DNA of 64,000 bases from Escherichia phage vB_EcoM_ACG-C40. The DNA is taken from sequence record NC_019399.1. One strand, given 5' to 3'. The notes below the pieces were generated by a model. The model made no database searches. It had not been told where the DNA came from and saw nothing but the letters and a program-made list of their open reading frames with translations. The translations under genes and the position numbers were made by a program. Each line of letters starts with the position of its first letter. Within the stretch, counting starts at the first letter, position 1. Shown piece after piece: positions 52,025 through 63,988 of the stretch.

Positions 52025-52032
52025 TATAAATA
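52025..52032 (+). promoter_or_regulatory. Late promoter TATAAATA for gene 34
   Basis: Exact TATAAATA about 35 nt upstream of ATG 52067, abutting the divergent rnh -35. Confidence 0.6.
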
Positions 52033-52066: not shown

Positions 52067-55000
52067 ATGGCCGAGATTAAAAGAAAGTTCAGAGCAGAAG
52101 ATGGTCTGGACGCAGGTGGCGATAAAATAATCAACGTAGCTTTAGCTGATCGTACCGTAGGAACTGACGGTGTTAACGTTGATTACTTAATTCAAGAAAA
52201 CACAGTTCAGCAATATGATCCAACTCGTGGATATTTAAAAGATTTTGTAATCATTTATAATAATCGTTTTTGGGCAGCAACGGATAATATTCCAAAACCT
52301 GCTGGAAATTTTAATAGAATTCGTTGGAAAGCATTACGTACTGATGCCGTATATACAACCGTATCATCTGGACCATATCAATTAAAATCCGGAGAAGCAA
52401 TTTCAGTAGATACATCAGTTGGCAATGACATTGAGTTTACTTTACCATCTTCTCCGCTTAATGGAGAAACCGTAATAATTCAAGATATCGGTGGAAAACC
52501 TGGCATAAATCAGGTTAAAATAAATTCTTCAAATCAGAGTATTGTCAATTTTAGAGGTGAACAGGTACGTTCAGTTTTAATGACTCATCCAAAGTCACAG
52601 ATGGTATTCATTTTTAATAATCGTTTGTGGCAAATGTATATTGCTGATTATAGCAGAGAAGCTGCGATTGTTACTCCATCGACTGCGTATCAAGCACAAT
52701 CTAATGATTTTATCGTACGTAGATTTACTTCTGCTGCACCAATTAATGTTAAACTTCCGAGATTTGCTAATCATGGCGATATTATTAATTTCGTTGATTT
52801 AGATAAACTGAATCCACTTTATCATACAATTGTTACTACATACGATGAAACGACTTCAGTACAAGAAGTTGGAACTCATTCCATTGAAGGCCGTACATCG
52901 ATTAACGGTTTCTTGATGTTTGACGATAATGAGAAATTGTGGAGATTGTTTGACGGGGATAGTAAAGCACGTTTACGCATTATAACAACTAATTCAAATA
53001 TTCGTCCAAATGAAGAAGTCATGGTATTTGGCGCGAATAATAGAACAACCCAAACAATTGAACTTCAGCTTCCGACTGATATTTCTGTTGGTGATACTGT
53101 TAAAATTTCCATGAATTACATGAGAAAAGGACAAACAGTTAAAATCAAAGCTGCTGGTGAAGATAAAATTGCTTCTTCAGTTCAATTGCTGCAATTCCCA
53201 AAACGTTCAGAATATCCGCCTGAAGCTGAATGGGTAACAGTTCAAGAATTAGTTTTTAACGGTGAAACTAATTATGTTCCAGTTTTACAACTTGCTTATA
53301 TAGAAGATTCTGATGGAAAATACTGGGTTGTACAGCAAAACGTTCCAACTGTAGAAAGAGTAGACTCTTTAAATGCTTCTACTAGAGCAAGATTAGGCGT
53401 AATTGCTTTAGCTACGCAAGCTCAAGCAAATGCTGATTTAGAAAATTCTCCGCAAAAAGAATTGGCAATTACTCCAGAAACGTTAGCTAATCGTACTGCT
53501 ACAGAAACTCGCAGAGGTATCGCAAGAATAGCAACTACTGCTCAAGTAAATCAGAACACTACATTCTCTTTTGCTGATGACCTTATCATCACTCCTAAAA
53601 AGCTGAATGAAAGAACTGCTACAGAAACTCGCAGAGGTGTTGCTGAAATTGCTACGCAGCAGGAAACTAATACAGGTATCGATGATACTACAATCATCAC
53701 TCCTAAAAAGCTTCAAGCTCGTCAAGGTTCTGAATCATTATCTGGTATTGTAACTTTTGTATCTACCGCAGGAGCTACTCCAGCTTCTAGTCGTGAATTA
53801 AATGGTACGAATGTTTATAATAAAAACACTAATAATTTAGTTGTTTCACCTAAAGCTTTGGATCAGTATAAAGCTACTCCAACGCAACAAGGCGCAGTAA
53901 TTTTAGCAGTTGAAAGTGAAGTAATTGCTGGACAAAGCCAAGAAGGATGGGCAAATGCGGTTGTAACGCCAGAAACGTTACATAAAAAGACATCAACTGA
54001 TGGAAGAATTGGTTTAATTGAAATTGCTACGCAAAGTGAAGTTAATACAGGAACTGACTATACTCGTGCAGTCACTCCTAAAACTTTAAATGACCGTAGA
54101 GCAACTGAAAGTTTAAGTGGTATAGCTGAAATTGCTACGCAAGTTGAATTCGACGCAGGCGTCGACGATACTCGTATCTCTACACCATTAAAAATTAAAA
54201 CCAGATTTAATAGTACTGATCGTACTTCTGTTGTTGCTCTATCTGGATTAGTTGAATCAGGAACTCTCTGGGACCATTATACCCTTAATATTCTTGAAGC
54301 AAATGAGACACAGCGTGGTACACTTCGTGTAGCTACACAAGTTGAAGCTGCTGCAGGAACATTAGATAATGTTTTAATAACTCCTAAAAAGCTTTTAGGT
54401 ACTAAATCTACCGAATCGCAAGAAGGTGTTATTAAAGTTGCAACTCAGTCTGAAACTGTGACTGGAACGTCAGCAAATACTGCTGTATCTCCAAAAAATT
54501 TAAAATGGATTGTGCAGAGTGAACCTACTTGGGCAGCTACTACTGCGATAAGAGGTTTTGTTAAAACTTCATCTGGTTCAATTACATTCGTTGGTAATGA
54601 TACAGTCGGTTCTACACAAGATTTAGAACTGTATGAGAAAAATAGCTATGCAGTATCACCATATGAATTAAACCGTGTATTAGCAAATTATCTGCCGTTA
54701 AAAGCAAAAGCTGTAGATAGTAATTTATTGGATGGTCTAGATTCATCTCAGTTCATTCGTAGGGATATTGCACAGACGGTTAATGGTTCACTAACCTTAA
54801 CCCAACAAACGAATCTGAGTGCCCCTCTTGTATCATCTAGTACTGCTACGTTTGGTGGTTCAGTTTCGGCAAATAGTGTACTAACTATTTCTAATACTGG
54901 AACAGAAACTCATCTGATTTTTGAGAAAGGACCTCAAACTGGAACTAACCAAGCACAGACGGTGACTATTAGAGTGTGGGGTAATCAATTTAGTGGGGAA

Positions 55001-55936
55001 TCAGATACAACACGTTCTACTGTATTTGAAGTTGGTGATGAAACGTCTAATCACTTTTATTCTCAGCGCAATAAAGCTGGAAATATAACATTTAATATCA
55101 ACGGTACAGTAACACCTATAAATGTTAATGCTTCAGGAACATTGAATGCAAATGGTGTAGCAACATTTGGTAATTCAGTCACTGCAACTGGTGAAATTAT
55201 TTCTCGAAGCGCAAATGCTTTCCGTTCTATTAACGGAAATTATGGTTTCATTGTTCGCAATGATGGATCAGTAACGAATTTTATGCTTACTGCATCGGGT
55301 GATCAGACTGGCGGATTTAATGGATTGCGTCCTTTAGCTATTAATAATGCATCTGGCCAAGTAACGATTGGTGAAAGCTTAATCATTGTCAAAGGTGCTA
55401 CTATAACTTCAGGTGGTTTAACTGTTAACTCGAGAATTCGTTCTCAGGGTACTAAAACATCTGACTTATATACCCGTGCGCCAACATCTGATACTGTAGG
55501 ATTCTGGTCAATCGATATTAACGATTCAGCCACTTATAACCAGTTCCCGGGTTATTTTAAAATGGTTGAAAAAACTAATGAAGTGACTGGACTTCCATAC
55601 TTAGAACGTGGCGAAGAAGTTAAATCTCCTGGTACATTGACTCAGTTTGGTAATACACTTGATTCGCTTTACCAAGATTGGATTACTTATCCAACGACCC
55701 CAGAAGCGCGCACCACTCGCTGGACACGTACATGGCAGAAAACCAAAAACTATTGGTCAAGTTTTGTTCAGGTATTTGACGGAGGTAACCCTCCTCAACC
55801 ATCTGACATCGGTGCTTTACCATCTGATAATGCTATAATGGGTAATCTTACTATTCGCGATTTCTTACGAATTGGTAATGTTCGCATTATTCCTGACCCA
55901 GTGAATAAAACTGTTAAATTTGAATGGGTTGAATAA
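52067..55936 (+). CDS. 34: Long tail fibre proximal subunit gp34
   Basis: 1289-aa ORF, T4 length and position. Confidence 0.95.
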   Translation: MAEIKRKFRAEDGLDAGGDKIINVALADRTVGTDGVNVDYLIQENTVQQYDPTRGYLKDFVIIYNNRFWAATDNIPKPAGNFNRIRWKALRTDAVYTTVSSGPYQLKSGEAISVDTSVGNDIEFTLPSSPLNGETVIIQDIGGKPGINQVKINSSNQSIVNFRGEQVRSVLMTHPKSQMVFIFNNRLWQMYIADYSREAAIVTPSTAYQAQSNDFIVRRFTSAAPINVKLPRFANHGDIINFVDLDKLNPLYHTIVTTYDETTSVQEVGTHSIEGRTSINGFLMFDDNEKLWRLFDGDSKARLRIITTNSNIRPNEEVMVFGANNRTTQTIELQLPTDISVGDTVKISMNYMRKGQTVKIKAAGEDKIASSVQLLQFPKRSEYPPEAEWVTVQELVFNGETNYVPVLQLAYIEDSDGKYWVVQQNVPTVERVDSLNASTRARLGVIALATQAQANADLENSPQKELAITPETLANRTATETRRGIARIATTAQVNQNTTFSFADDLIITPKKLNERTATETRRGVAEIATQQETNTGIDDTTIITPKKLQARQGSESLSGIVTFVSTAGATPASSRELNGTNVYNKNTNNLVVSPKALDQYKATPTQQGAVILAVESEVIAGQSQEGWANAVVTPETLHKKTSTDGRIGLIEIATQSEVNTGTDYTRAVTPKTLNDRRATESLSGIAEIATQVEFDAGVDDTRISTPLKIKTRFNSTDRTSVVALSGLVESGTLWDHYTLNILEANETQRGTLRVATQVEAAAGTLDNVLITPKKLLGTKSTESQEGVIKVATQSETVTGTSANTAVSPKNLKWIVQSEPTWAATTAIRGFVKTSSGSITFVGNDTVGSTQDLELYEKNSYAVSPYELNRVLANYLPLKAKAVDSNLLDGLDSSQFIRRDIAQTVNGSLTLTQQTNLSAPLVSSSTATFGGSVSANSVLTISNTGTETHLIFEKGPQTGTNQAQTVTIRVWGNQFSGESDTTRSTVFEVGDETSNHFYSQRNKAGNITFNINGTVTPINVNASGTLNANGVATFGNSVTATGEIISRSANAFRSINGNYGFIVRNDGSVTNFMLTASGDQTGGFNGLRPLAINNASGQVTIGESLIIVKGATITSGGLTVNSRIRSQGTKTSDLYTRAPTSDTVGFWSIDINDSATYNQFPGYFKMVEKTNEVTGLPYLERGEEVKSPGTLTQFGNTLDSLYQDWITYPTTPEARTTRWTRTWQKTKNYWSSFVQVFDGGNPPQPSDIGALPSDNAIMGNLTIRDFLRIGNVRIIPDPVNKTVKFEWVE
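53384..54500 (+). repeat. In-frame tandem protein repeats inside gene 34
   Basis: About 7 units of a roughly 40-aa motif (e.g. TATETRRGIARIATTAQVN...TPKKL / TATETRRGVAEIATQQETNTG...TPKKL). Confidence 0.6.
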
Positions 55937-55944
55937 GAGGTATT

Positions 55945-57060
55945 ATGGAAAAATTTATGGCAGAGTTTGGACAAGGATATGTCCAAACGCCATTTTTATC
56001 GGAAAGTAATTCAGTAAGATACAAAATAAGTATAGCGGGTTCTTGCCCGCTTTCTACTGCAGGACCATACGTTAAATTTCAGGATAATCCTGTAGGAAGT
56101 CAAACATTTAGCGCAGGCCTTCATTTAAGAGTTTTTGACCCTTCTACGGGAGCATTAGTTGATAGTAAGTCATATGCTTTTTCTGCTTCAAACAATACAA
56201 CATCTGCCGCTTTTGTCAGTTTCATGAATTCTTTGTCAAACAATAGACTTGTTGCTATATTAACTAGCGGAAAGGTTAATTTTCCTCCTGAAGTGGTATC
56301 TTGGTTAAGGGGAGCAGGAACTTCAGTTTTTCCATCAGATTCAGTATTGTCAAGATTTGACGTGTCATATGCTGCTTTTTATACTTCTTCTAAAAGAGCT
56401 ATTGCATTAGAGCATGTTAAACTAAGTAATAGAAAAAGCACAGATGATTATCAAACTATTTTAGATGTTGTATTTGATAGTTTAGAAGACGTCGGAGCTA
56501 CAGGATTTCCTAAAAGAACATACGAAAGCGTTGAGCAATTTATGTCTGCGGTTGGAGGAACTAATAATGAAATTGCGCGATTGCCAACTTCAGCTGCTAT
56601 AAGTAAACTTTCTGACTATAATTTAATTCCTGGTGATGTTCTTTATCTTAAAGCACAACTATATGCTGATGCTGATTTACTTGATCTTGGAACTACAAAT
56701 ATATCTATTCGTTTTTATGATGCATCAAATGGATATATTTCCTCGACCCAAGCTGAGTTTACTGGGCAAGCTGGGTCTTGGGAATTAAAAGAAGATTATG
56801 TAGTTGTTCCTGAAAATGCAGTAGGATTTACGATATATGCACAAAGAACTGCTCAAGCAGGTCAAGGCGGCATGAGAAATTTAAGTTTTTCTGAAGTATC
56901 AAGAAATGGCGGCATTTCAAAACCTGCCGAATTTGGCGTCAACGGTATTCGCGTTAATTATGTCTGTGAATCGGCTTCACCTCCAGATATAATGGTACTT
57001 CCTACACAAGCCTCTTCTAAAACTGGCAAAGTGTTTGGACAGGAATTTAGAGAAGTTTAA
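55945..57060 (+). CDS. 35: Long tail fibre hinge protein gp35
   Basis: 371-aa ORF, T4 position. Confidence 0.9.
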   Translation: MEKFMAEFGQGYVQTPFLSESNSVRYKISIAGSCPLSTAGPYVKFQDNPVGSQTFSAGLHLRVFDPSTGALVDSKSYAFSASNNTTSAAFVSFMNSLSNNRLVAILTSGKVNFPPEVVSWLRGAGTSVFPSDSVLSRFDVSYAAFYTSSKRAIALEHVKLSNRKSTDDYQTILDVVFDSLEDVGATGFPKRTYESVEQFMSAVGGTNNEIARLPTSAAISKLSDYNLIPGDVLYLKAQLYADADLLDLGTTNISIRFYDASNGYISSTQAEFTGQAGSWELKEDYVVVPENAVGFTIYAQRTAQAGQGGMRNLSFSEVSRNGGISKPAEFGVNGIRVNYVCESASPPDIMVLPTQASSKTGKVFGQEFREV

Positions 57061-57065
57061 ACTGA

Positions 57066-57092
57066 GGGAGCCTTCGGGTTCCCTTTTTCTTT
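57066..57092 (+). terminator. Rho-independent terminator after gene 35
   Basis: GGGAGCC-TTCG-GGTTCCC followed by TTTTTCTTTAT. Confidence 0.7.
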
Positions 57093-57099
57093 ATAAATA
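57092..57099 (+). promoter_or_regulatory. Late promoter TATAAATA for gene 36
   Basis: Exact TATAAATA about 24 nt upstream of ATG 57123. Confidence 0.55.
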
Positions 57100-57122
57100 A
57101 TATTAAAATAAAGGGGCATATA

Positions 57123-57773
57123 ATGGCTGATTTAAAAGTAGGTTCAACTGTGGGTGGATCTGTCATTTGGCATCAAGGAAATTTTCCATTGAATTCAGCC
57201 GGTGACGATGTACTCTACAAATCATTTAAAATATATTCAGAATATAATAAACCGCAGGCAGCTGATAACGATTTCGTTTCTAAAGCTAATGGTGGTACTT
57301 ACGCCGGTCCAATTACTATTAATTACGGGGTAAATAGTTATCTTCAATTAAGTAATAATGAAACCCCTATCCGAATTCGTTCTGGTGGCGGCACTGGTAA
57401 TACTCTTGTAGTTGGTGGCTCTTCTGGCGGTATTAGTTTTAGACCAGCAGGTAGTGAAATCACTACTGGACAAATTACTATTACGCCAGAAGGTTTGACA
57501 ACATTTACCAAAGCTGTAACGGCTCCATCTGTAACTGTTACATCTACTCCTTCCGCAGCATCTGATGTTACTCGTAAAGATTATGTTGATGGAGCAATAA
57601 ATACTGTTACAGCAAATGCAAACTCTAGGGTATTACGCTCTGGAGACACTATGACAGGAAATTTAACTGCGCCAAACCTTTTTTCACAGAATCCTGCATC
57701 TCAACCTTCACACGTTCCACGATTTGACCAAATCGTAATTAAGGATTCTGTTCAAGATTTCGGCTATTATTAA
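57123..57773 (+). CDS. 36: Long tail fibre distal connector gp36
   Basis: 216-aa ORF, T4 position. Confidence 0.9.
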
Positions 57774-57781
57774 GAGGACTT

Positions 57782-60700
57782 ATGGCTACTTTAAAACAAA
57801 TACAATTTAAAAGAAGCAAAACTGCAGGTCAACGTCCTGCTGCTTCAGTATTAGCCGAAGGTGAATTGGCTATAAACTTAAAAGATAAAACAATTTTCAC
57901 AAAAGATGACTCAGGTAGTGTTATAGAATTAGGTTTAAAATATGGAGGAACTATAAATGGGTCTTTAGAGGTTACAGAAAATATAACTGGAACTTTAATT
58001 GGAAATTCTAGCACAGCTACTAAATTGCAAACACCTAGGAAAATTAATGGTATATCTTTTGATGGGTCAAAGGACATTACCTTAACTCCATCTGACATAA
58101 ATGTCAATAGCACAACATTTATAAAAAATAATGGCGAATTACCTACTGATGCTAATTTAGATACGTATGGGCCCATTGAAGAATATCTTGGTGTTTGGTC
58201 GAAATCTACTTCAACAAATGCGCAACCAGCAAATAAATTCCCAGAAGAAAATGCCGTAGGTGTACTAGAAGTATTTGTGGCCGGCCAATTTGCTGGCACT
58301 CAGCGTTATACTGTAAGATCTGGTAACGTCTATATTCGTTCCTTATCTGCTAAATGGAATGGCGTCGATGGTCCATGGGGTGTGTGGCGTAATGTTCAAG
58401 CGTCAACTCGTCCACTTTCACAAACGATTGACCTTGATAGCTTGGGAGAATTAGAACATTGTGGCTTATGGAGAAACAGTTCAAGCGCAATCGCATCATT
58501 TGATCGCCATTATCCAGAAGAAGGATCAGCCGCACAAGGATTTTTAGAAATATTTGAAGGTGGTTTATACACAAGAACGCAGCGTTATACTACCCGCATG
58601 GGTATGGTTTATACTCGTTGTCTCGCTGCTGCATGGGATGCTAGTGCACCTAAGTGGGAGGAATGGAAGCAGGTTGGTCATGGCACACCAGCGACTTTCT
58701 ATGATGGAGATCTGAATGATTTTAAAACTCCTGGGTTATATAACATTTTAGGCACTGATGCCGTTATTAACTGTCCTACTGGTGAAGGTTTACCAGCCGT
58801 TATTGTTGGTTTGCTGGAAGTTAAACAGCGTGCTTCTGGTGGTGCTATTTTCCAAAAATTTACTACTGCCGGAACGGGTGCAACTACTCGCGATCGTATT
58901 TTTGAGCGTGCATATACTGGTGGTGCGTGGGGTGCATGGAACGAAGTATATACATCTTATTCTCTTCCAATTACTTTGGGTATGGGTGGTATTAAAGCTC
59001 AATTAGCGGAGTTAGATTGGCAAACCTTTGATTTTGTTCCTGGTAGTATGTTTAGCGTTCCTTTGAACAAAATAAAGAACATGCCAGCAAATATGGATTG
59101 GGGGACGATTGACGGAAACCTGGTTATGTTTTCCGTTGGTCCTAGTGAACACACTAGCACAGGGCGTACTGTTCAGGTTTGGCGCGGTACTGTATCCCAG
59201 ACAAACTACCGTTATTTTGTCGTTCGTGTGTTCGGTAATTCTGGAAATAGAACTTGCACAGTCCGCCGTGTTGTTCTTGAAGATGGTCGCCACACATGGA
59301 CAGATCAACAAGATTTTAATGGTGCTGTTAACTTCGGTGCTCCTACCAATTTTAACTCTACTGTTAACCTTAATAACACTACCACATTTAAAACAGAAGT
59401 TAAATTCCGCTCATCTAATGCATTCCGTATGTATAGCGGAAAATTTGGTACAATTTTCCGTAATGATGGAGAGAGTCTTTATATTCTTTCCACCGACGAA
59501 AATGATCAAGATGGAAACTTTAATACAAATAGACCTTTCCGTTATGAATTAAGAACTGGTGATGTTACTTTGGGTGGTACTAGTGGTGCTAACGTTTTAA
59601 AATTAAAACGCGATTCTCTCACCGCATTTTTTGGTGGTGATATTAATATAAAAGGCTTGATGACTTTTGATGCCGGACGTTTAGGATCACGAGATTATTT
59701 TAAATTTAACCATTGGGGTGATAGTAATAATGCGCGCGATAACATTATTCAGTTAGAAGACAGCAAAGGCGTTCATTTTTCCACTGAACGTACTTTAGCG
59801 ACTGGTGCAATTAAAACTCGTTTCTTTGGCGAAACATTCACTGATGGTACATTATACCTAAATCAGATGAATAATAGCTCTGAACGATTCCATATCAATA
59901 ATTGGGGAAATTCAGAAGTTGGTCGCGCGGCAGTGATGGAAATCGGTGATTCCAAAGGTTATCACTTCTATACTGAACGCAGGACAGATAACAGTTTGGC
60001 GTTTGATGTTGCTGGCGCTTTTACTGTGCATGGACCTAACGGAATAACCATCAAAAACTCAGCGGGTGCACGCCATATCTGGTTTAAAGATGATAGCGAT
60101 ACAGAAAAGGCTGTTATTTGGGCGACCGATGATGGCATGTTACATATACGAAATAATAACGAGGGTTCATTTAGTCATCACTTCCAGGGCGCAATGATTA
60201 GACTGGAAGGGCGTGTTCCTTATGGTGCAGCAAAGGGGCTTCTCCGTGGTGAAGTTGATGGTGGTGCATATGTTGCATGGAGAGACCGCCCTGCTGGTTT
60301 GTTGGTTGACTGCCAGAAAAGTATTGACAGTGCTCATGCTGTTTGGAAAGCGGTTGATTGGGGGCGTCAATATATCGCTGCGATGGACGTTCATTGTCCG
60401 GGTGATGGTAATAATACCGCAGCCGCTGTTCTTCATGTTCAGGCTGCTGATTATCAATTCCACGCAAGCGGAGAATTTCATGCCACTGGTAACGGAAACT
60501 TTAACGATGTGTATATTCGTTCTGATCGTCGTCTTAAAGACAATATAGAAGATTATACCGGAAATGCGTTAAGTTTGATTGGTAAGCTGAAAGTGAAAAC
60601 TTACGATAAAGTTAAATCTCTTAAGGACCGTGAAATTATCGGTCATGAGATTGGCATTATCGCACAGGATTTACAAGAAATATTACCGGAAGCTGTGAAA

Positions 60701-60874
60701 TCTTCAAAAGTTGGCAATCTTGATAATCCAGACGATGTTCTGACAATTTCTAACTCGGCAGTGAATGCTCTTTTAATTAAGGCTATTCAGGAAATGAGTG
60801 AAGAAATTAAAGAATTGAAAACTCCTTTCTTTACTAAAATTGCTCGCAAAATTAGTAAATATTTTAAATTCTAA
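57782..60874 (+). CDS. 37: Long tail fibre distal subunit gp37 with C-terminal intramolecular chaperone domain
   Basis: 1030-aa ORF; C-terminal ...[26 protein letters not shown]...[15 protein letters not shown]... resembles the endosialidase-type autoproteolytic chaperone (S-D-x-R-x-K-x-N-I). Confidence 0.9.
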
Positions 60875-60910
60875 CAACAAGGGGGAAATGCCCCCTTTGG
60901 AGTATAAATT

Positions 60911-61711
60911 ATGGCAGTAGTTGGTGTTCCTGGTTGGATTGGAAGTTCAGCCGCAAATGAAACAGGACAGCGCTGGATGAGTCAAGCGGCTGGTCAATTA
61001 AGATTGGGTGTTCCTTGCTGGATGAGTCAATTTGCAGGTCGCTCACGAGAAATTATTCACACGCTTGGAGCAGACCATAACTTCAATGGTCAATGGTTCC
61101 GAGATAGATGTTTTGAGGCAGGTAGTGCACCTATAGTATTTAATATTACAGGTGATTTAGTATCATATTCTAAAGATGTACCGCTTTTCTTTATGTATGG
61201 TGACACTCCTAACGAATACGTTGTCCTTAATATTCATGGTGGTGTCCATATGTGGGGTCGAGGTGGTAATGGTGGATACACTCACTCAGGTGGAGATGGT
61301 AACGGTACACAAGGCGGTCATGTTATTCAAAATGATATCGGTGGACGGCTTCGTATTTGGAACTACGGTGTTATAGCTGCTGGCGGTGGTGGCGGTGGTG
61401 GTATTGCATATCGTCCACACTCAGGGGCAAACTGGCAAGATATCGGTGGCGGTGGCGGTCGACCTTTCGGTGGTGCAGGTGGTGGTGGTTATTCCGGTGG
61501 CGCTGCTTCTTATGAAGGTCCGGGTGGTGGTTATGACTATGGTAACGCACACTCCGGCGCAGGTGGTAATGCTGGTGCTGCTGGTCAGAATGCATGGTCT
61601 GACGGCGGTAAAGTTCTTAAAGTTGGTGTTGGTGGTGCGTCTGGTCATGCAGTGTTTGGGTCTTCTCCAACTTGGGGTGCTGTTGGAACAATTTACGGAC
61701 CAAGAGTATAA
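60911..61711 (+). CDS. 38: T2-type gp38 tail fibre adhesin with glycine-rich motifs
   Basis: 266-aa ORF with several poly-Gly stretches separated by short variable segments ([40 protein letters not shown]...); unlike the 183-aa T4 gp38 chaperone. Confidence 0.85.
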
Positions 61712-61741
61712 TTTGAATAAATATCCTTAAAAGGAGGGTCT

Positions 61742-62398
61742 ATGGCAGCACCTAGAATATCATTTTCGCCCTCTGATATTCTATTTGGTGTTCTAGATCG
61801 CTTGTTCAAAGATAATGCTACCGGGAAAGTTCTTGCTTCCCGGGTAGCTGTTGTAATTCTTTTGTTTATAATGGCGATTGTTTGGTATAGGGGAGATAGT
61901 TTCTTTGAGTACTATAAGCAATCAAAGTATGAAACATACAGCGAAATTATTGAAAAGGAAAGAAATGCACGCTTTGAATCTGTCGCCCTGGAACAACTCC
62001 AGATAGTTCATATATCATCTGAGGCAGACTTTAGTGCGGTATATTCTTTCCGCCCTAAAAACTTAAACTATTTTGTTGATATTATAGCATACGAAGGAAA
62101 ATTACCTTCAACAATAAGCGAAAAATCACTTGGAGGATATCCTGTTGATAAAACTATGGATGAATATGCAGTTCATTTAAATGGACGTCATTATTATTCC
62201 GACTCAAAATTTGCTTTTTTACCAACTAAAAAGCCTACTCCCGAAATAAACTACATGTACAGTTGTCCATATTTTAATTTGGATAATATCTATGCTGGAA
62301 CGATAACCATGTACTGGTATAGAAATGATCATATAAGTAATGACCGCCTTGAATCAATATGTGCTCAGGCGGCCAGAATATTAGGAAGGGCTAAATAA
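61742..62398 (+). CDS. t: Holin T
   Basis: 218-aa ORF starting MAAPRISFSPSDILFGVLDRLFKDNATGKVLASRVAVVILLFIMAIVWY, single N-terminal TM segment. Confidence 0.95.
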   Translation: MAAPRISFSPSDILFGVLDRLFKDNATGKVLASRVAVVILLFIMAIVWYRGDSFFEYYKQSKYETYSEIIEKERNARFESVALEQLQIVHISSEADFSAVYSFRPKNLNYFVDIIAYEGKLPSTISEKSLGGYPVDKTMDEYAVHLNGRHYYSDSKFAFLPTKKPTPEINYMYSCPYFNLDNIYAGTITMYWYRNDHISNDRLESICAQAARILGRAK

Positions 62399-62671
62399 TT
62401 ATTTGTTCGTATACATTTCTAGATATCGATATACACCCTCAAAACCCTCGTTGAATTCATCGATGAGGGTTTTCTTATCTTCTTGAGTTAATTCAGAAAC
62501 AATTTTACGAAATGAATTCTGATTTAACTTTCTACCTTCATGCGTTACTCCAATCTCATTAAGAAATGCAATAAAATTAGCACGATTCTCAACAATATCT
62601 TCTCTGGAAAATTTAATCAAAATAGATGCAACAGTAATAATTTCACGAACTGTATCAATGTTTTTATTCAT
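62399..62671 (-). CDS. asiA: Anti-sigma-70 factor AsiA
   Basis: 90-aa ORF MNKNIDTVREIITVASILIKFSREDIVENRANFIAFLNEIG... Confidence 0.95.
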   Translation of the reverse strand: MNKNIDTVREIITVASILIKFSREDIVENRANFIAFLNEIGVTHEGRKLNQNSFRKIVSELTQEDKKTLIDEFNEGFEGVYRYLEMYTNK

Positions 62672-62683
62672 TAACTATACCAC

Positions 62684-62836
62684 TCAATTAGTTGACTTTG
62701 TTATAATATCATCAGACGCTTGATTTGTAAACTGGTCTGTGTTATTTTCTTCAAAAATTTTTTCTACGAATTCCTTGAACGACTCGCGTTCCTGAGCTAC
62801 ATTATGCTCGATTACCATTTCAAGATTATGACTCAT
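62684..62836 (-). CDS. Hypothetical 50-aa acidic protein (asiA.1 position)
   Basis: ATG 62836 overlaps the arn stop as ATGA; MSHNLEMVIEHNVAQERESFKEF... Confidence 0.4.
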   Translation of the reverse strand: MSHNLEMVIEHNVAQERESFKEFVEKIFEENNTDQFTNQASDDIITKSTN

Positions 62837-63111
62837 TCGAAATAATCTTCAATTTCGTAATCATGGACATAAATCATTATAGTTTTTAATACATCATCAA
62901 TACTTTTTCCTGGAGCTGGAATTACGTAAAAATATCCTGCTTTTGAGAGGTCTTTATAAGTTCCAATCAAGAAATCATTATTCTCAAGATGTAACTCTTC
63001 AACTAATTCATTGACAATTGAATGGTATAGGTTTGGTAGAAACTTATATAGCTTTTCTAGAATATCAATTTTGATTGTGTATTGAACCACGGACTGAGAA
63101 TCAATAATCAT
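62833..63111 (-). CDS. arn: Arn-like protein (anti-restriction nuclease, inhibitor of McrBC in T4)
   Basis: 92-aa ORF at the T4 arn position downstream of asiA. Confidence 0.7.
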   Translation of the reverse strand: MIIDSQSVVQYTIKIDILEKLYKFLPNLYHSIVNELVEELHLENNDFLIGTYKDLSKAGYFYVIPAPGKSIDDVLKTIMIYVHDYEIEDYFE

Positions 63112-63194
63112 AGACCTTCCCCTTATGTTTCTGTTTGCGATTAGATTCTTTAAACGCTTTCTTCTTATCCTTATGAACAGAAGCTTTATTAAAA

Positions 63195-63413
63195 TTATGT
63201 TTTGCGACTAAATTGTTCATAGTGCTGAATTACCTCTCTTAAACATTTGCATGTGAATGAAAACTTTTTAGCTACACCACATTCAAATATATGTTCTCTT
63301 AAATCACGTGTATCAGTATATCCCATCTCAACAATAAAATGCCTTATTAGATTTTTATCTTTATCATTGAGAGAATTAAAATAATCAGATTTTGAATTAA
63401 TTTCCCTGGCCAA
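63195..63413 (-). CDS. Hypothetical protein (arn.x-like)
   Basis: 72-aa ORF. Confidence 0.45.
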   Translation of the reverse strand: MAREINSKSDYFNSLNDKDKNLIRHFIVEMGYTDTRDLREHIFECGVAKKFSFTCKCLREVIQHYEQFSRKT

Positions 63414-63693
63414 ATTGAATCACCTTCAGTTGACGTTTTAGTTCTTTTATCATTTCTTCGTTCATCGCAATATAAAGATCGCGTAAAGCAGGTTTTAACA
63501 TTCCATTTACTGGAGAACTAAATGGACATACATAATCTTTTCCTACGAGCTTTTTGGTGAATTCCATATCACAGAACTGAAATGCCGGTTCATTGGCATA
63601 AATTCCCCAATTAGTTGACATCATTTTATTGGCATATTCCAACGCCTGGATTTGATTCTTAATTCCATCAATTTGAAACTTTTTAATATTCAT
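63397..63693 (-). CDS. Hypothetical protein (arn.x-like)
   Basis: 98-aa ORF. Confidence 0.45.
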   Translation of the reverse strand: MNIKKFQIDGIKNQIQALEYANKMMSTNWGIYANEPAFQFCDMEFTKKLVGKDYVCPFSSPVNGMLKPALRDLYIAMNEEMIKELKRQLKVIQFGQGN

Positions 63694-63988
63694 TAGTAAA
63701 GGTCCTCAGAGTAAAGTTCTTTTTCACTACCACCACGTTCAATACGCACTTGTCCAGCGTAAGTTGCAATAATCATTGCTTCTTCACGTGTCCAGTAATT
63801 GCTATACTGGTCAATAAATCCTTGGTCTTCACCACAAACATGGTCTGATACAAGTTTATCACTTACCTGGTCAAGAACTTCAGCCATATCTTTAGAATAA
63901 TGACGAGCACCAGGAATAACCAGAGTCCCACCATCTTTTAACTTAAAGCGGTTGGCTGCACACACAATTCGACGTTGATATTTTTCAT
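63693..63988 (-). CDS. Hypothetical protein
   Basis: Track start 63965 is TTG; in-frame ATG at 63988 gives [16 protein letters not shown]... (98 aa); start uncertain near window edge. Confidence 0.4.

Follow-up and report, generated by a model that had tools for sequence, protein, structure and literature searches.

The stretch of DNA analysed here (the window) comprises 64,000 nt of Escherichia phage vB_EcoM_ACG-C40 (NC_019399.1), and its positions 57782–61711 contain two adjacent long tail fibre genes, both on the plus strand and both exactly where the preliminary description of this DNA had placed them. The first, g37 (57782–60874), encodes a gp37 of 1030 aa, and the second, g38 (60911–61711), a gp38 of 266 aa, with a 36-nt gap between the g37 stop codon and the g38 start. 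The holin gene t (61742–62398) is next after g38, and the gene order g34-g35-g36-g37-g38-t is the same as in T-even phages. The window belongs to a Tequatrovirus, with 97.7% identity across 25 kb to Yersinia/Escherichia T-even phages. The earlier characterization of the surrounding sequence as T4-like was loose, the fibre proteins gp34–36 showing 98% identity to T6 versus 68–96% to T4.

Nearly all of gp37 (residues 1–1025) matched phrog_1699, “long tail fiber protein distal subunit” (E = 1.2e-236). Residues 1–913 (57782..60520, +) correspond to the predicted mature protein, which would form the shaft and tip of the distal half-fibre and end in ...DVYIR913. Two internal segments stood out in this part. 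Direct self-comparison revealed a tandem duplication of approximately residues 120–205 and 212–298 (58139..58675, +), whose copies shared 40% identity (E = 1e-20); in the same comparison a third copy was possible but not significant. A match to phrog_4618, “tail collar fiber protein”, covered residues 112–325. Further downstream, residues 523–587 (59348..59542, +) formed a segment common to the C-terminal trimerisation domain of gp34, as indicated by the Pfam Gp34_trimer profile (E = 7.2e-14), by PDB matches to the T4 gp34 structures 4UXE, 5NXF and 5NXH, and by BLASTP against gp34 of the same window (31% identity, E = 5.7e-13).

The last 117 residues of gp37 (914–1030, with the stop codon 60521..60874, +) consisted of a Peptidase_S74 domain followed by a C-terminal helix, as delimited by Pfam PF13884 and alignments. 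The profile was matched over its entire length (positions 1–58 of 58) by residues 914–973 (E = 2.9e-15, 56.8 bits at a cut-off of 22), and the match began exactly at Ser914. Sequence matches of the C-terminus in the PDB were the S16 gp37 construct 6F45_A, the MYRF chain 7DC3, an S74-type self-cleaving domain, and the tail fibre 8JOV; the SDRRLK sequence aligned with SDRRIK of S16 and SDERLK of 8JOV. The claim that gp37 ends in an endosialidase-type chaperone was borne out by the whole-profile match together with these PDB matches. The catalytic pair of S74 domains, as in endosialidase, is a Ser at the beginning of the domain and a Lys five residues further on, and such a Ser-x4-Lys pair was present here (S914-D-R-R-L-K919) within the sequence ...NFNDVYIR913-S914DRRLK919DNIEDY.... 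The S16 gp37 cleavage site, DLNVS^SDRRIKK (PMC7917993), aligned with DVYIR^SDRRLKD, and from this alignment self-cleavage of gp37 would be expected between Arg913 and Ser914 (DVYIR^SDRRLK), with Ser914 and Lys919 as the putative pair. Self-cleavage near this motif had been proposed earlier; the motif was indeed present, but the proposed cut point (YIRS/DRR) lay one residue too late, as the cut should precede Ser914.

It is very improbable that the S74-like domain is a degenerate, uncleaved remnant and that the fibre tip is built in another way, because the VYIRSDxRLK sequence, including the Ser/Lys pair, was invariant in nine T-even gp37 proteins (T2 among them) while the adjoining tip varied widely, and because the Pfam profile was covered in full and well above its cut-off. 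Furthermore, processing has been documented for S16 gp37 (PMC7917993) and for the C-terminus of T2 gp37, the latter by Drexler et al. 1986 as cited in PMC3157838. The domain of gp37 resembles the other endosialidase-type chaperones, such as those of K1F endosialidase and MYRF, in its full profile, its Ser-x4-Lys pair and its C-terminal position after a trimeric fibre. It differs from K1F endosialidase in being attached to a tail fibre rather than to a tailspike enzyme, and, unlike in the endosialidase type, its release would uncover the site where a separate adhesin docks.

The sequence of gp38 was rich in glycine (26% overall and 36% in residues 115–266), which formed runs of seven (158–164), five (179–183), four (190–193) and three residues (205–207) with non-Gly segments between them. 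In alignments of 9, 10 and 59 sequences, these runs and other invariant Gly columns were flanked by variable blocks, confirming the earlier reading of gp38 as a 266-aa protein whose poly-Gly motifs are split by short variable segments. Residues 47–266 matched the whole GP38 profile (PF05268, positions 1–218 of 218; E = 1.1e-67, 228.5 bits at a cut-off of 25), residues 1–42 matched Gp38_N (PF21721; E = 1.5e-19, 70.1 bits, cut-off 25), and the protein belonged to phrog_2056, “tail fiber protein; host specificity” (E = 6.5e-110). The Pfam matches of both proteins were far stronger than expected by chance. Sequence matches in the PDB were 9V85 (PP01 gp38; E = 2.7e-65, residues 38–266) and 6F45_D (S16 gp38; E = 1.4e-42, residues 5–263). 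The same two entries were the only ones that Foldseek returned from the PDB for the AlphaFold model of gp38, with E = 4.7e-26 and a target-normalised TM-score of 0.88 for 9V85, and E = 1.1e-20 and 0.80 for 6F45_D. The model (pLDDT 87.5) predicted the fold of 6F45_D and 9V85, which comprises a helical bundle, a beta-helix and a polyglycine sandwich; confidence was low at residues 1–14, as expected because the docking helix was modelled without its partner.

These results agree with the assignment of gp38 in the preliminary description to the T2/T6-type adhesins rather than to T4 gp38, with which the best BLASTP alignment covered 7 residues (E = 3.6) and global identity was 14%. T4 gp38 is an unrelated assembly factor of 183 aa, and a T4-type assembly-chaperone identity of the present gp38 was rejected on this lack of similarity. 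That gp38 nevertheless acts as an assembly chaperone as in T4, with gp37 itself reading the receptor, is scarcely conceivable: the gene lies downstream of g37, as it does in T4, and this shared position is all that speaks for such a role, whereas both sequence and predicted fold place gp38, over its full length, in the adhesin family. The two gp37 proteins also differ at their ends. T4 gp37 carries its own receptor-binding tip (Pfam Collar and Phage_fiber, residues 816–937) and no S74 domain, whereas gp37 of the window has neither Collar nor Phage_fiber and ends in the S74 chaperone instead; identity between the two is 75% over the first 64 aa, beyond which they have diverged strongly.

Four regions could be distinguished in gp38. 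The N-terminal attachment domain (residues 1–45; 60911..61045, +; Pfam Gp38_N) contained Trp9, Trp22 and Trp37, conserved in 58, 57 and 49 of 59 homologues, respectively, and aligned with the tryptophans of S16 gp38, which in the S16 structure are three prongs inserted into gp37 pockets (PMC6851490). A conserved beta-helix region followed (residues 46–115; 61046..61255, +; alignment and AlphaFold), with 90–100% identity to gp38 of Ox2, RB32, FL08, M1 and T6, and with short strands modelled at a pLDDT of ~94–97. The specificity domain (residues 116–250; 61256..61660, +) was defined by the alignments as the glycine-rich motifs GRM1–5 alternating with the hypervariable segments HVS1 (123–157), HVS2 (165–178), HVS3 (188–217) and HVS4 (226–240). 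The conserved C-terminal strand (residues 251–266 with the stop codon; 61661..61711, +) carried PTW..VG.IYG.RV, which was kept in every adhesin aligned.

Taken together, the two genes very likely specify a T2/T6/S16-class receptor-binding tip for a T-even long tail fibre, with a predicted S74 self-cleavage, a predicted 3:1 docking of gp37 to gp38, and OmpA as the predicted receptor. According to this model, the 1030-aa gp37 would be a precursor whose C-terminal Ser914–Phe1030, the Peptidase_S74 chaperone, assists three gp37 chains in folding to a trimeric fibre before it cuts itself off between Arg913 and Ser914 by means of Ser914 and Lys919, so that the tip comes to end in ...DVYIR. A single gp38 would next sit on this tip as a cap, attached by its N-terminal helical domain, with W9, W22 and W37 plugged into three equivalent pockets of the gp37 trimer. 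The C-terminal half of gp38 would form the polyglycine sandwich, its core made of the conserved glycine-rich motifs, and the hypervariable segments would be distal loops that touch the receptor. The S16 gp37-gp38 tip (6F45) has the same architecture, in which a trimeric gp37 stops at the boundary with an S74 chaperone that autocleaves ahead of SDRR(I/L)K, and a single gp38, built from a beta-helix, a polyglycine sandwich and three Trp prongs, forms the cap, although its gp38 shares only ~41% identity in the Foldseek alignment and has unlike loops, and its gp37 tip is unlike in sequence except around the cut. The PP01 gp38 receptor-binding domain (9V85) was the best structural and sequence match to gp38 of the window, but it has other hypervariable loops and binds OmpC of O157 (PMC12892980). 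No contradiction to the proposed architecture was found.

The receptor was predicted from the hypervariable segments. The earlier suggestion that receptor specificity is determined by the variable segments of gp38 is in line with genetic studies (PMC3157838, PMC12032242, bioRxiv 10.64898/2026.04.02.716166), including a gp38 swap from HVS2 onward that switched a phage to OmpA (bioRxiv 10.64898/2026.04.02.716166). Alignment of these segments with adhesins of known receptor, a comparison also suggested in the preliminary description, gave a clear result and placed gp38 in the Ox2/type 1 OmpA class. Gp38 of Ox2, an OmpA phage (GenBank X05675, receptor-recognising protein), likewise has 266 aa and was identical at 261 of 266 positions; the five substitutions from the window to Ox2 were A14S, A15V, N174K (HVS2), G193R (in the HVS3 segment 188–217) and A257V. 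HVS1 and HVS4 were identical and HVS2 and HVS3 differed by one residue each (100, 92, 96 and 100% identity for HVS1–4, respectively). Identity of the segments to those of RB32, FL08 and AV119 was 80–93%. It was 0–57% to FL18, M1, T6, T2 and Ac3, a set of Tsx, FadL/OmpF and other OmpA-type adhesins, and fell to 0–27% when HVS2–4 alone were compared. The adhesins of FL08 and AV119 (Lutz et al. 2025) and of RB32/RB33 share with gp38 of the window the HVS set, the YR(V/P)HSGANW loop, R184 and R265, and differ by several substitutions in GRM4, GRM5 and the C-terminus. Ox2 has been reported to bind OmpA loops (PMC12032242), and OmpA is required by RB32 (PMC3157838) and by FL08 and AV119 (PMC12032242). 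With an HVS set entirely of the Ox2/RB32/FL08 type, gp38 is predicted to use OmpA most probably as its primary receptor, as a member of the “type 1” OmpA adhesin group.

Small changes in these loops can redirect related adhesins. A Q206L substitution in a gp38 loop of RB51/RB68 changed the receptor from OmpF to OmpW (bioRxiv 10.64898/2026.04.02.716166), a few HVS2/HVS3 residues altered the specificity of the T6-like/T2-like adhesins of PST and SV76 (PMC3157838), and, by the account given in PMC12892980, Henning's group obtained Ox2 variants whose receptor specificity was altered through changes in the hypervariable regions. Ox2 and RB32 are also reported to depend on LPS composition (PMC3157838), and OmpA may not be the sole requirement. 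A tip of the same architecture that uses a receptor other than OmpA, or one in addition to it, with N174, G193, A257 or the differing tip of gp37 redirecting it to LPS or a further outer-membrane protein, is nevertheless unlikely. All four segments were 92–100% identical to those of Ox2, and FL08 and AV119, both OmpA-dependent, likewise carry N174 and G193, whereas among the aligned adhesins K174 was restricted to Ox2 and RB32 and R193 was unique to the Ox2 record. The window therefore has the common state of the type 1 OmpA group at both positions.

The arrangement of an S74-ending gp37 with an adhesin gp38 is already known and is textbook knowledge for T-even phages, among which it is stated to predominate, with T4 as the exception (PMC3157838 and PMC6851490). 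Its architecture, self-cleaving chaperone, polyglycine fold and link between HVS and receptor were described in the Henning-group work of 1986–1991, as cited in PMC3157838 and PMC12892980, and in Trojet 2011 (PMC3157838), the 6F45 structure (PMC6851490), PMC12032242 (2025) and PMC12892980 (2026). The present locus opens no new question, and the value of the analysis lies mainly in annotation, as the primary receptor (OmpA) can be predicted from sequence; this prediction would be useful for choosing phages for cocktails and for anticipating resistance by loss of ompA.

The locus is also one more natural case of tail-fibre gene reshuffling at conserved flanks. Compared with the metagenome contig L010, which carries the same gp38, the window showed a single mismatch in 57000–57900 and another in 60761–63900, with hundreds between; the contig was otherwise identical outside this exchanged g37 cassette (57900..60760, no strand assigned; approximately residues 40–993). 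The cassette matched phage U115, from which the window differed by 11 mismatches between 57782 and ~61175, and the g37 DNA was 99.3% identical to U115 g37. Identical gp38 was found in six public contigs, all six with g38 right after an S74-ending g37, whose product was always 982 or 988 aa long. Neither the phage collection nor the public contigs examined contained the pairing of a U115-type 1030-aa gp37 with an Ox2-type gp38, and the exact gp37 sequence was not on record in public assemblies. The locus is thus a mosaic, in which a U115-type g37 cassette lies in a backbone that elsewhere pairs the same g38 with a shorter g37, and it very likely originated by homologous exchange at the conserved flanks. 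Upstream of VYIR, Ox2 gp37 has a tip of another sequence type (67% identity in the last 160 residues). It is conceivable, although quite doubtful, that the new gp37 tip or N174/G193/A257 alters the choice of OmpA loop variants or of a second receptor; if true, this would be a natural case of host-range change through cassette exchange.

Finally, we searched the locus for transcription and RNA signals. The T4-type late promoter consensus TATAAATA had one exact match upstream of g36 (57092..57099, +) and no second match from g35 to the end of g38 (none in 57100–61711). By analogy with T4 late promoters, this element is probably the start of the late g36-g37-g38-t transcript. A late promoter of its own was rejected for g37 and for g38, since the consensus was absent before either gene; a TATAAAT sequence directly 5′ of the g38 ATG was not counted, being too near the start codon to serve g38. 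Sigma-70-like promoters were fewer than in shuffled sequence (18 versus a mean of 23.7) and were uninformative, and Rfam at gathering thresholds together with a tRNA scan detected no RNA genes in the whole window. In the g37/g38 gap, folding of 60872–60913 (−14.7 kcal/mol, z = −3.3) revealed an intergenic stem-loop, GGGGG-AAAUG-CCCCC (60881..60895, +), with a Shine-Dalgarno sequence GGAG (60899–60902, +) on its 3′ side, and a stem-loop was also present at the equivalent g37/g38 position in Ox2, U115, Sf21, RB32, T6, T2 and T4.

The tail-fibre tip is encoded by g37 (57782-60874, + strand, 1030 aa) and g38 (60911-61711, + strand, 266 aa), which in the ORF list follow g34 (52067-55936), g35 (55945-57060, the fibre hinge protein) and g36 (57123-57773) and lie upstream of the holin gene t (61742-62398), a gene order common to the window, T4, T2 and T6. 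The window comes from a Tequatrovirus; over 25 kb it was 97.7% identical to several T-even phages of Yersinia and Escherichia, and its gp34, gp35 and gp36 were 98% identical to those of T6, compared to 91%, 96% and 68%, respectively, for T4. Residues 58-112 of gp35 matched the Pfam family ILEI (interleukin-like EMT inducer, PF15711; E 7.9e-8, above the curated cut-off), and the same match is precomputed for gp35 homologues on public contigs.

The preliminary description placed an endosialidase-type chaperone at the end of gp37, and database searches bore this out. Residues 914-973 covered the whole Pfam profile Peptidase_S74 ("chaperone of endosialidase"; E 2.9e-15), and the last 190 residues, as well as a profile made from the C-termini of nine T-even gp37 proteins, matched the S16 gp37 construct in the PDB (6F45_A, E 1.9e-11), the same queries also matching 7DC3, a MYRF chain, and 8JOV, a further tail fibre. 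Every defining feature of an S74 intramolecular chaperone that could be checked was found in gp37. The Peptidase_S74 match began exactly at Ser914 (...NFNDVYIR913-S914DRRLK919DNI...), and VYIRSDxRLK was invariant in all nine gp37 proteins compared (window, U115, Sf21, SHFML-11, RB32, fFiEco06, T6, T2 and Ox2), with a highly variable tip just upstream. The reported S16 cut, DLNVS^SDRRIKK, which releases 113 residues (PMC7917993), aligned with DVYIR^SDRRLKD of the window, and by this analogy cleavage would be expected between Arg913 and Ser914, freeing 117 residues. The expected bond is one residue before the slash in the proposed YIRS/DRR. For T2 gp37, Drexler et al. 1986 (cited in PMC3157838) demonstrated processing at the C-terminus.

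Resemblance of gp37 to its T4 counterpart was limited to the first 64 residues (75% identity), and it had neither of the T4 tip domains, Collar and Phage_fiber. Residues 523-587 formed a segment also found in the gp34 C-terminal trimerisation domain. The shaft also contained a tandem duplication (window 58139-58675; residues 120-205 and 212-298, 40% identity, E 1e-20) of a module of roughly 90 aa per copy; a possible third copy at residues 301-395 looked alike by eye at its WxxW end and was not significant by BLAST.

The second component, gp38, was matched end to end by PF05268 (GP38 adhesin, E 1.1e-67) and PF21721 (Gp38_N, E 1.5e-19). It also matched phrog_2056 ("tail fiber protein; host specificity", E 6.5e-110) and two solved structures, the receptor-binding domain of PP01 gp38 (9V85, E 2.7e-65) and S16 gp38 (6F45_D, E 1.4e-42, residues 5-263). 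With 59 homologues as input, AlphaFold gave a model (mean pLDDT 87.5) that matched only these two structures in the PDB (9V85, E 4.7e-26, target-normalised TM-score 0.88; 6F45_D, E 1.1e-20, 0.80). W9, W22 and W37 correspond to the tryptophan trio through which S16 gp38 docks into the gp37 trimer (PMC6851490), and are kept in 58, 57 and 49 of the 59 homologues. Glycine made up 36% of residues 115-266, and its runs (G7, G5, G4 and G3) occupied invariant columns alternating with variable blocks, in line with the poly-Gly motifs noticed in this 266-aa protein; this layout of glycine-rich motifs and hypervariable segments (HVS) was described by Trojet et al. (PMC3157838). Each of the gp38 adhesin family's defining features that could be checked was present, in agreement with the T2/T6-type assignment. 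A T4-type identity was rejected, as no similarity to T4 gp38 was found (E 3.6).

With the cleavage site corrected by one residue, the preliminary observation is confirmed and its interpretation supported. The finding itself is already known biology: an S74-chaperone gp37 with a gp38 adhesin is the predominant arrangement in T-even phages, T4 being the exception (PMC6851490; PMC3157838), and this gp38 barely differs from a protein that was characterised in the 1980s, an identical protein being already public. What our analysis adds is a predicted receptor, OmpA.

By tblastn, gp38 was 99.6% identical to that of Shigella phage Sf21 and 98.1% identical to that of the OmpA phage Ox2 (X05675, 266 aa), from which it differed at five positions (A14S, A15V, N174K, G193R and A257V; window residue first). 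Alignment with adhesins of known receptor, suggested at the outset, revealed OmpA-type segments: identity to Ox2 was 100%, 92%, 96% and 100% for HVS1 to HVS4, compared to 80%, 85-92%, 80-83% and 86-93% for RB32, FL08 and AV119, and 36-57%, 0-14%, 15-27% and 0-20% for FL18, M1, T6, T2 and Ac3. Ox2 binds the extracellular loops of OmpA (PMC12032242), RB32 requires OmpA, with LPS composition also mattering (PMC3157838), and FL08 and AV119 require OmpA and define the "type 1" OmpA adhesins (PMC12032242). Since the segments resemble those of these OmpA-dependent phages, OmpA is quite probably the primary receptor. The "type 1" contacts, around R165-A170, R181 and R262, correspond to R168-A173 (YRPHSGA), R184 and R265 in the window, and residues 174 and 193 of the window's gp38 agree with FL08 and AV119 and differ from the Ox2 record. 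Replacing gp38 from HVS2 onward alone switched a T6-like phage to OmpA (bioRxiv 10.64898/2026.04.02.716166). Some doubt persists because single loop substitutions can redirect such adhesins (bioRxiv 10.64898/2026.04.02.716166; PMC3157838). A gp38 98.9% identical to the window's occurs in OR584013.1 ("Pseudomonas phage PsgM02F", listed with the host Pseudomonas coronafaciens), and another adhesin cluster (P0046) has the source name Bacillus cereus; on E. coli-type T-even adhesins, both labels look like the result of a misassigned host or of contamination.

Comparison with related genomes pointed to a mosaic locus. The window differed from U115 by 11 mismatches between 57782 and about 61175 and diverged beyond, U115 gp38 having T6-type, Tsx-like hypervariable segments. 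Conversely, a metagenome contig, L010 (ENA ERZ27314019 k141_12348), carried an identical gp38 beside a 982-aa gp37, with a single mismatch in each of 57000-57900 and 60761-63900 (2 in about 4 kb), and was very different over 57900-60760 (gp37 residues about 40-993). The identical gp38 occurred on 14 public contigs, adjoining a 982- or 988-aa gp37 in all six shown; exact look-up found no public record of the window's gp37, and no phage record spanning the whole 3.9 kb at >92.7% identity was found. As judged from sequence comparison, L010 and the window represent a natural, cleanly bounded replacement of a cassette, limited to g37. We read the window as an L010-like genome with a U115-type g37 cassette, with putative exchange points in two conserved places, the 5' end of g37 and the C-terminal end of the chaperone. 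In the experiments of Trojet et al. (PMC3157838), variable tail-fibre cassettes were likewise exchanged at their conserved flanks.

The sole match to the T4-type late-promoter consensus TATAAATA near g37 and g38 was located between g35 and g36, just 5' of g36 (57092-57099), directly preceded by a terminator-like hairpin (57064-57085) and T-run; therefore, g36-g37-g38-t look like one late transcription unit. A further TATAAATA copy was present at 52025, ahead of g34. A long inverted repeat resembling a terminator (14 pairs, 62441-62473) lay within a minus-strand ORF (62399-62671) whose position is annotated as anti-sigma factor AsiA in U115, Sf21, RB32 and T4.

A GC stem-loop, GGGGG-AAAUG-CCCCC (60881-60895), separated the g37 stop codon from the g38 Shine-Dalgarno, the surrounding 60872-60913 folding at -14.7 kcal/mol (z -3.3). 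A stem-loop occupied the equivalent spot in Ox2, U115, Sf21, RB32, T6, T2 and even T4, whose g38 is an unrelated gene; pairing was kept while stem and loop bases varied, T4 and T2 having UUCG loops. The T6 record AP018814.1 (10711-11508) annotates the g38 start four codons upstream (MEKI-MAVVG...), overlapping the hairpin, whereas the start in every other record is the MAVVG methionine.
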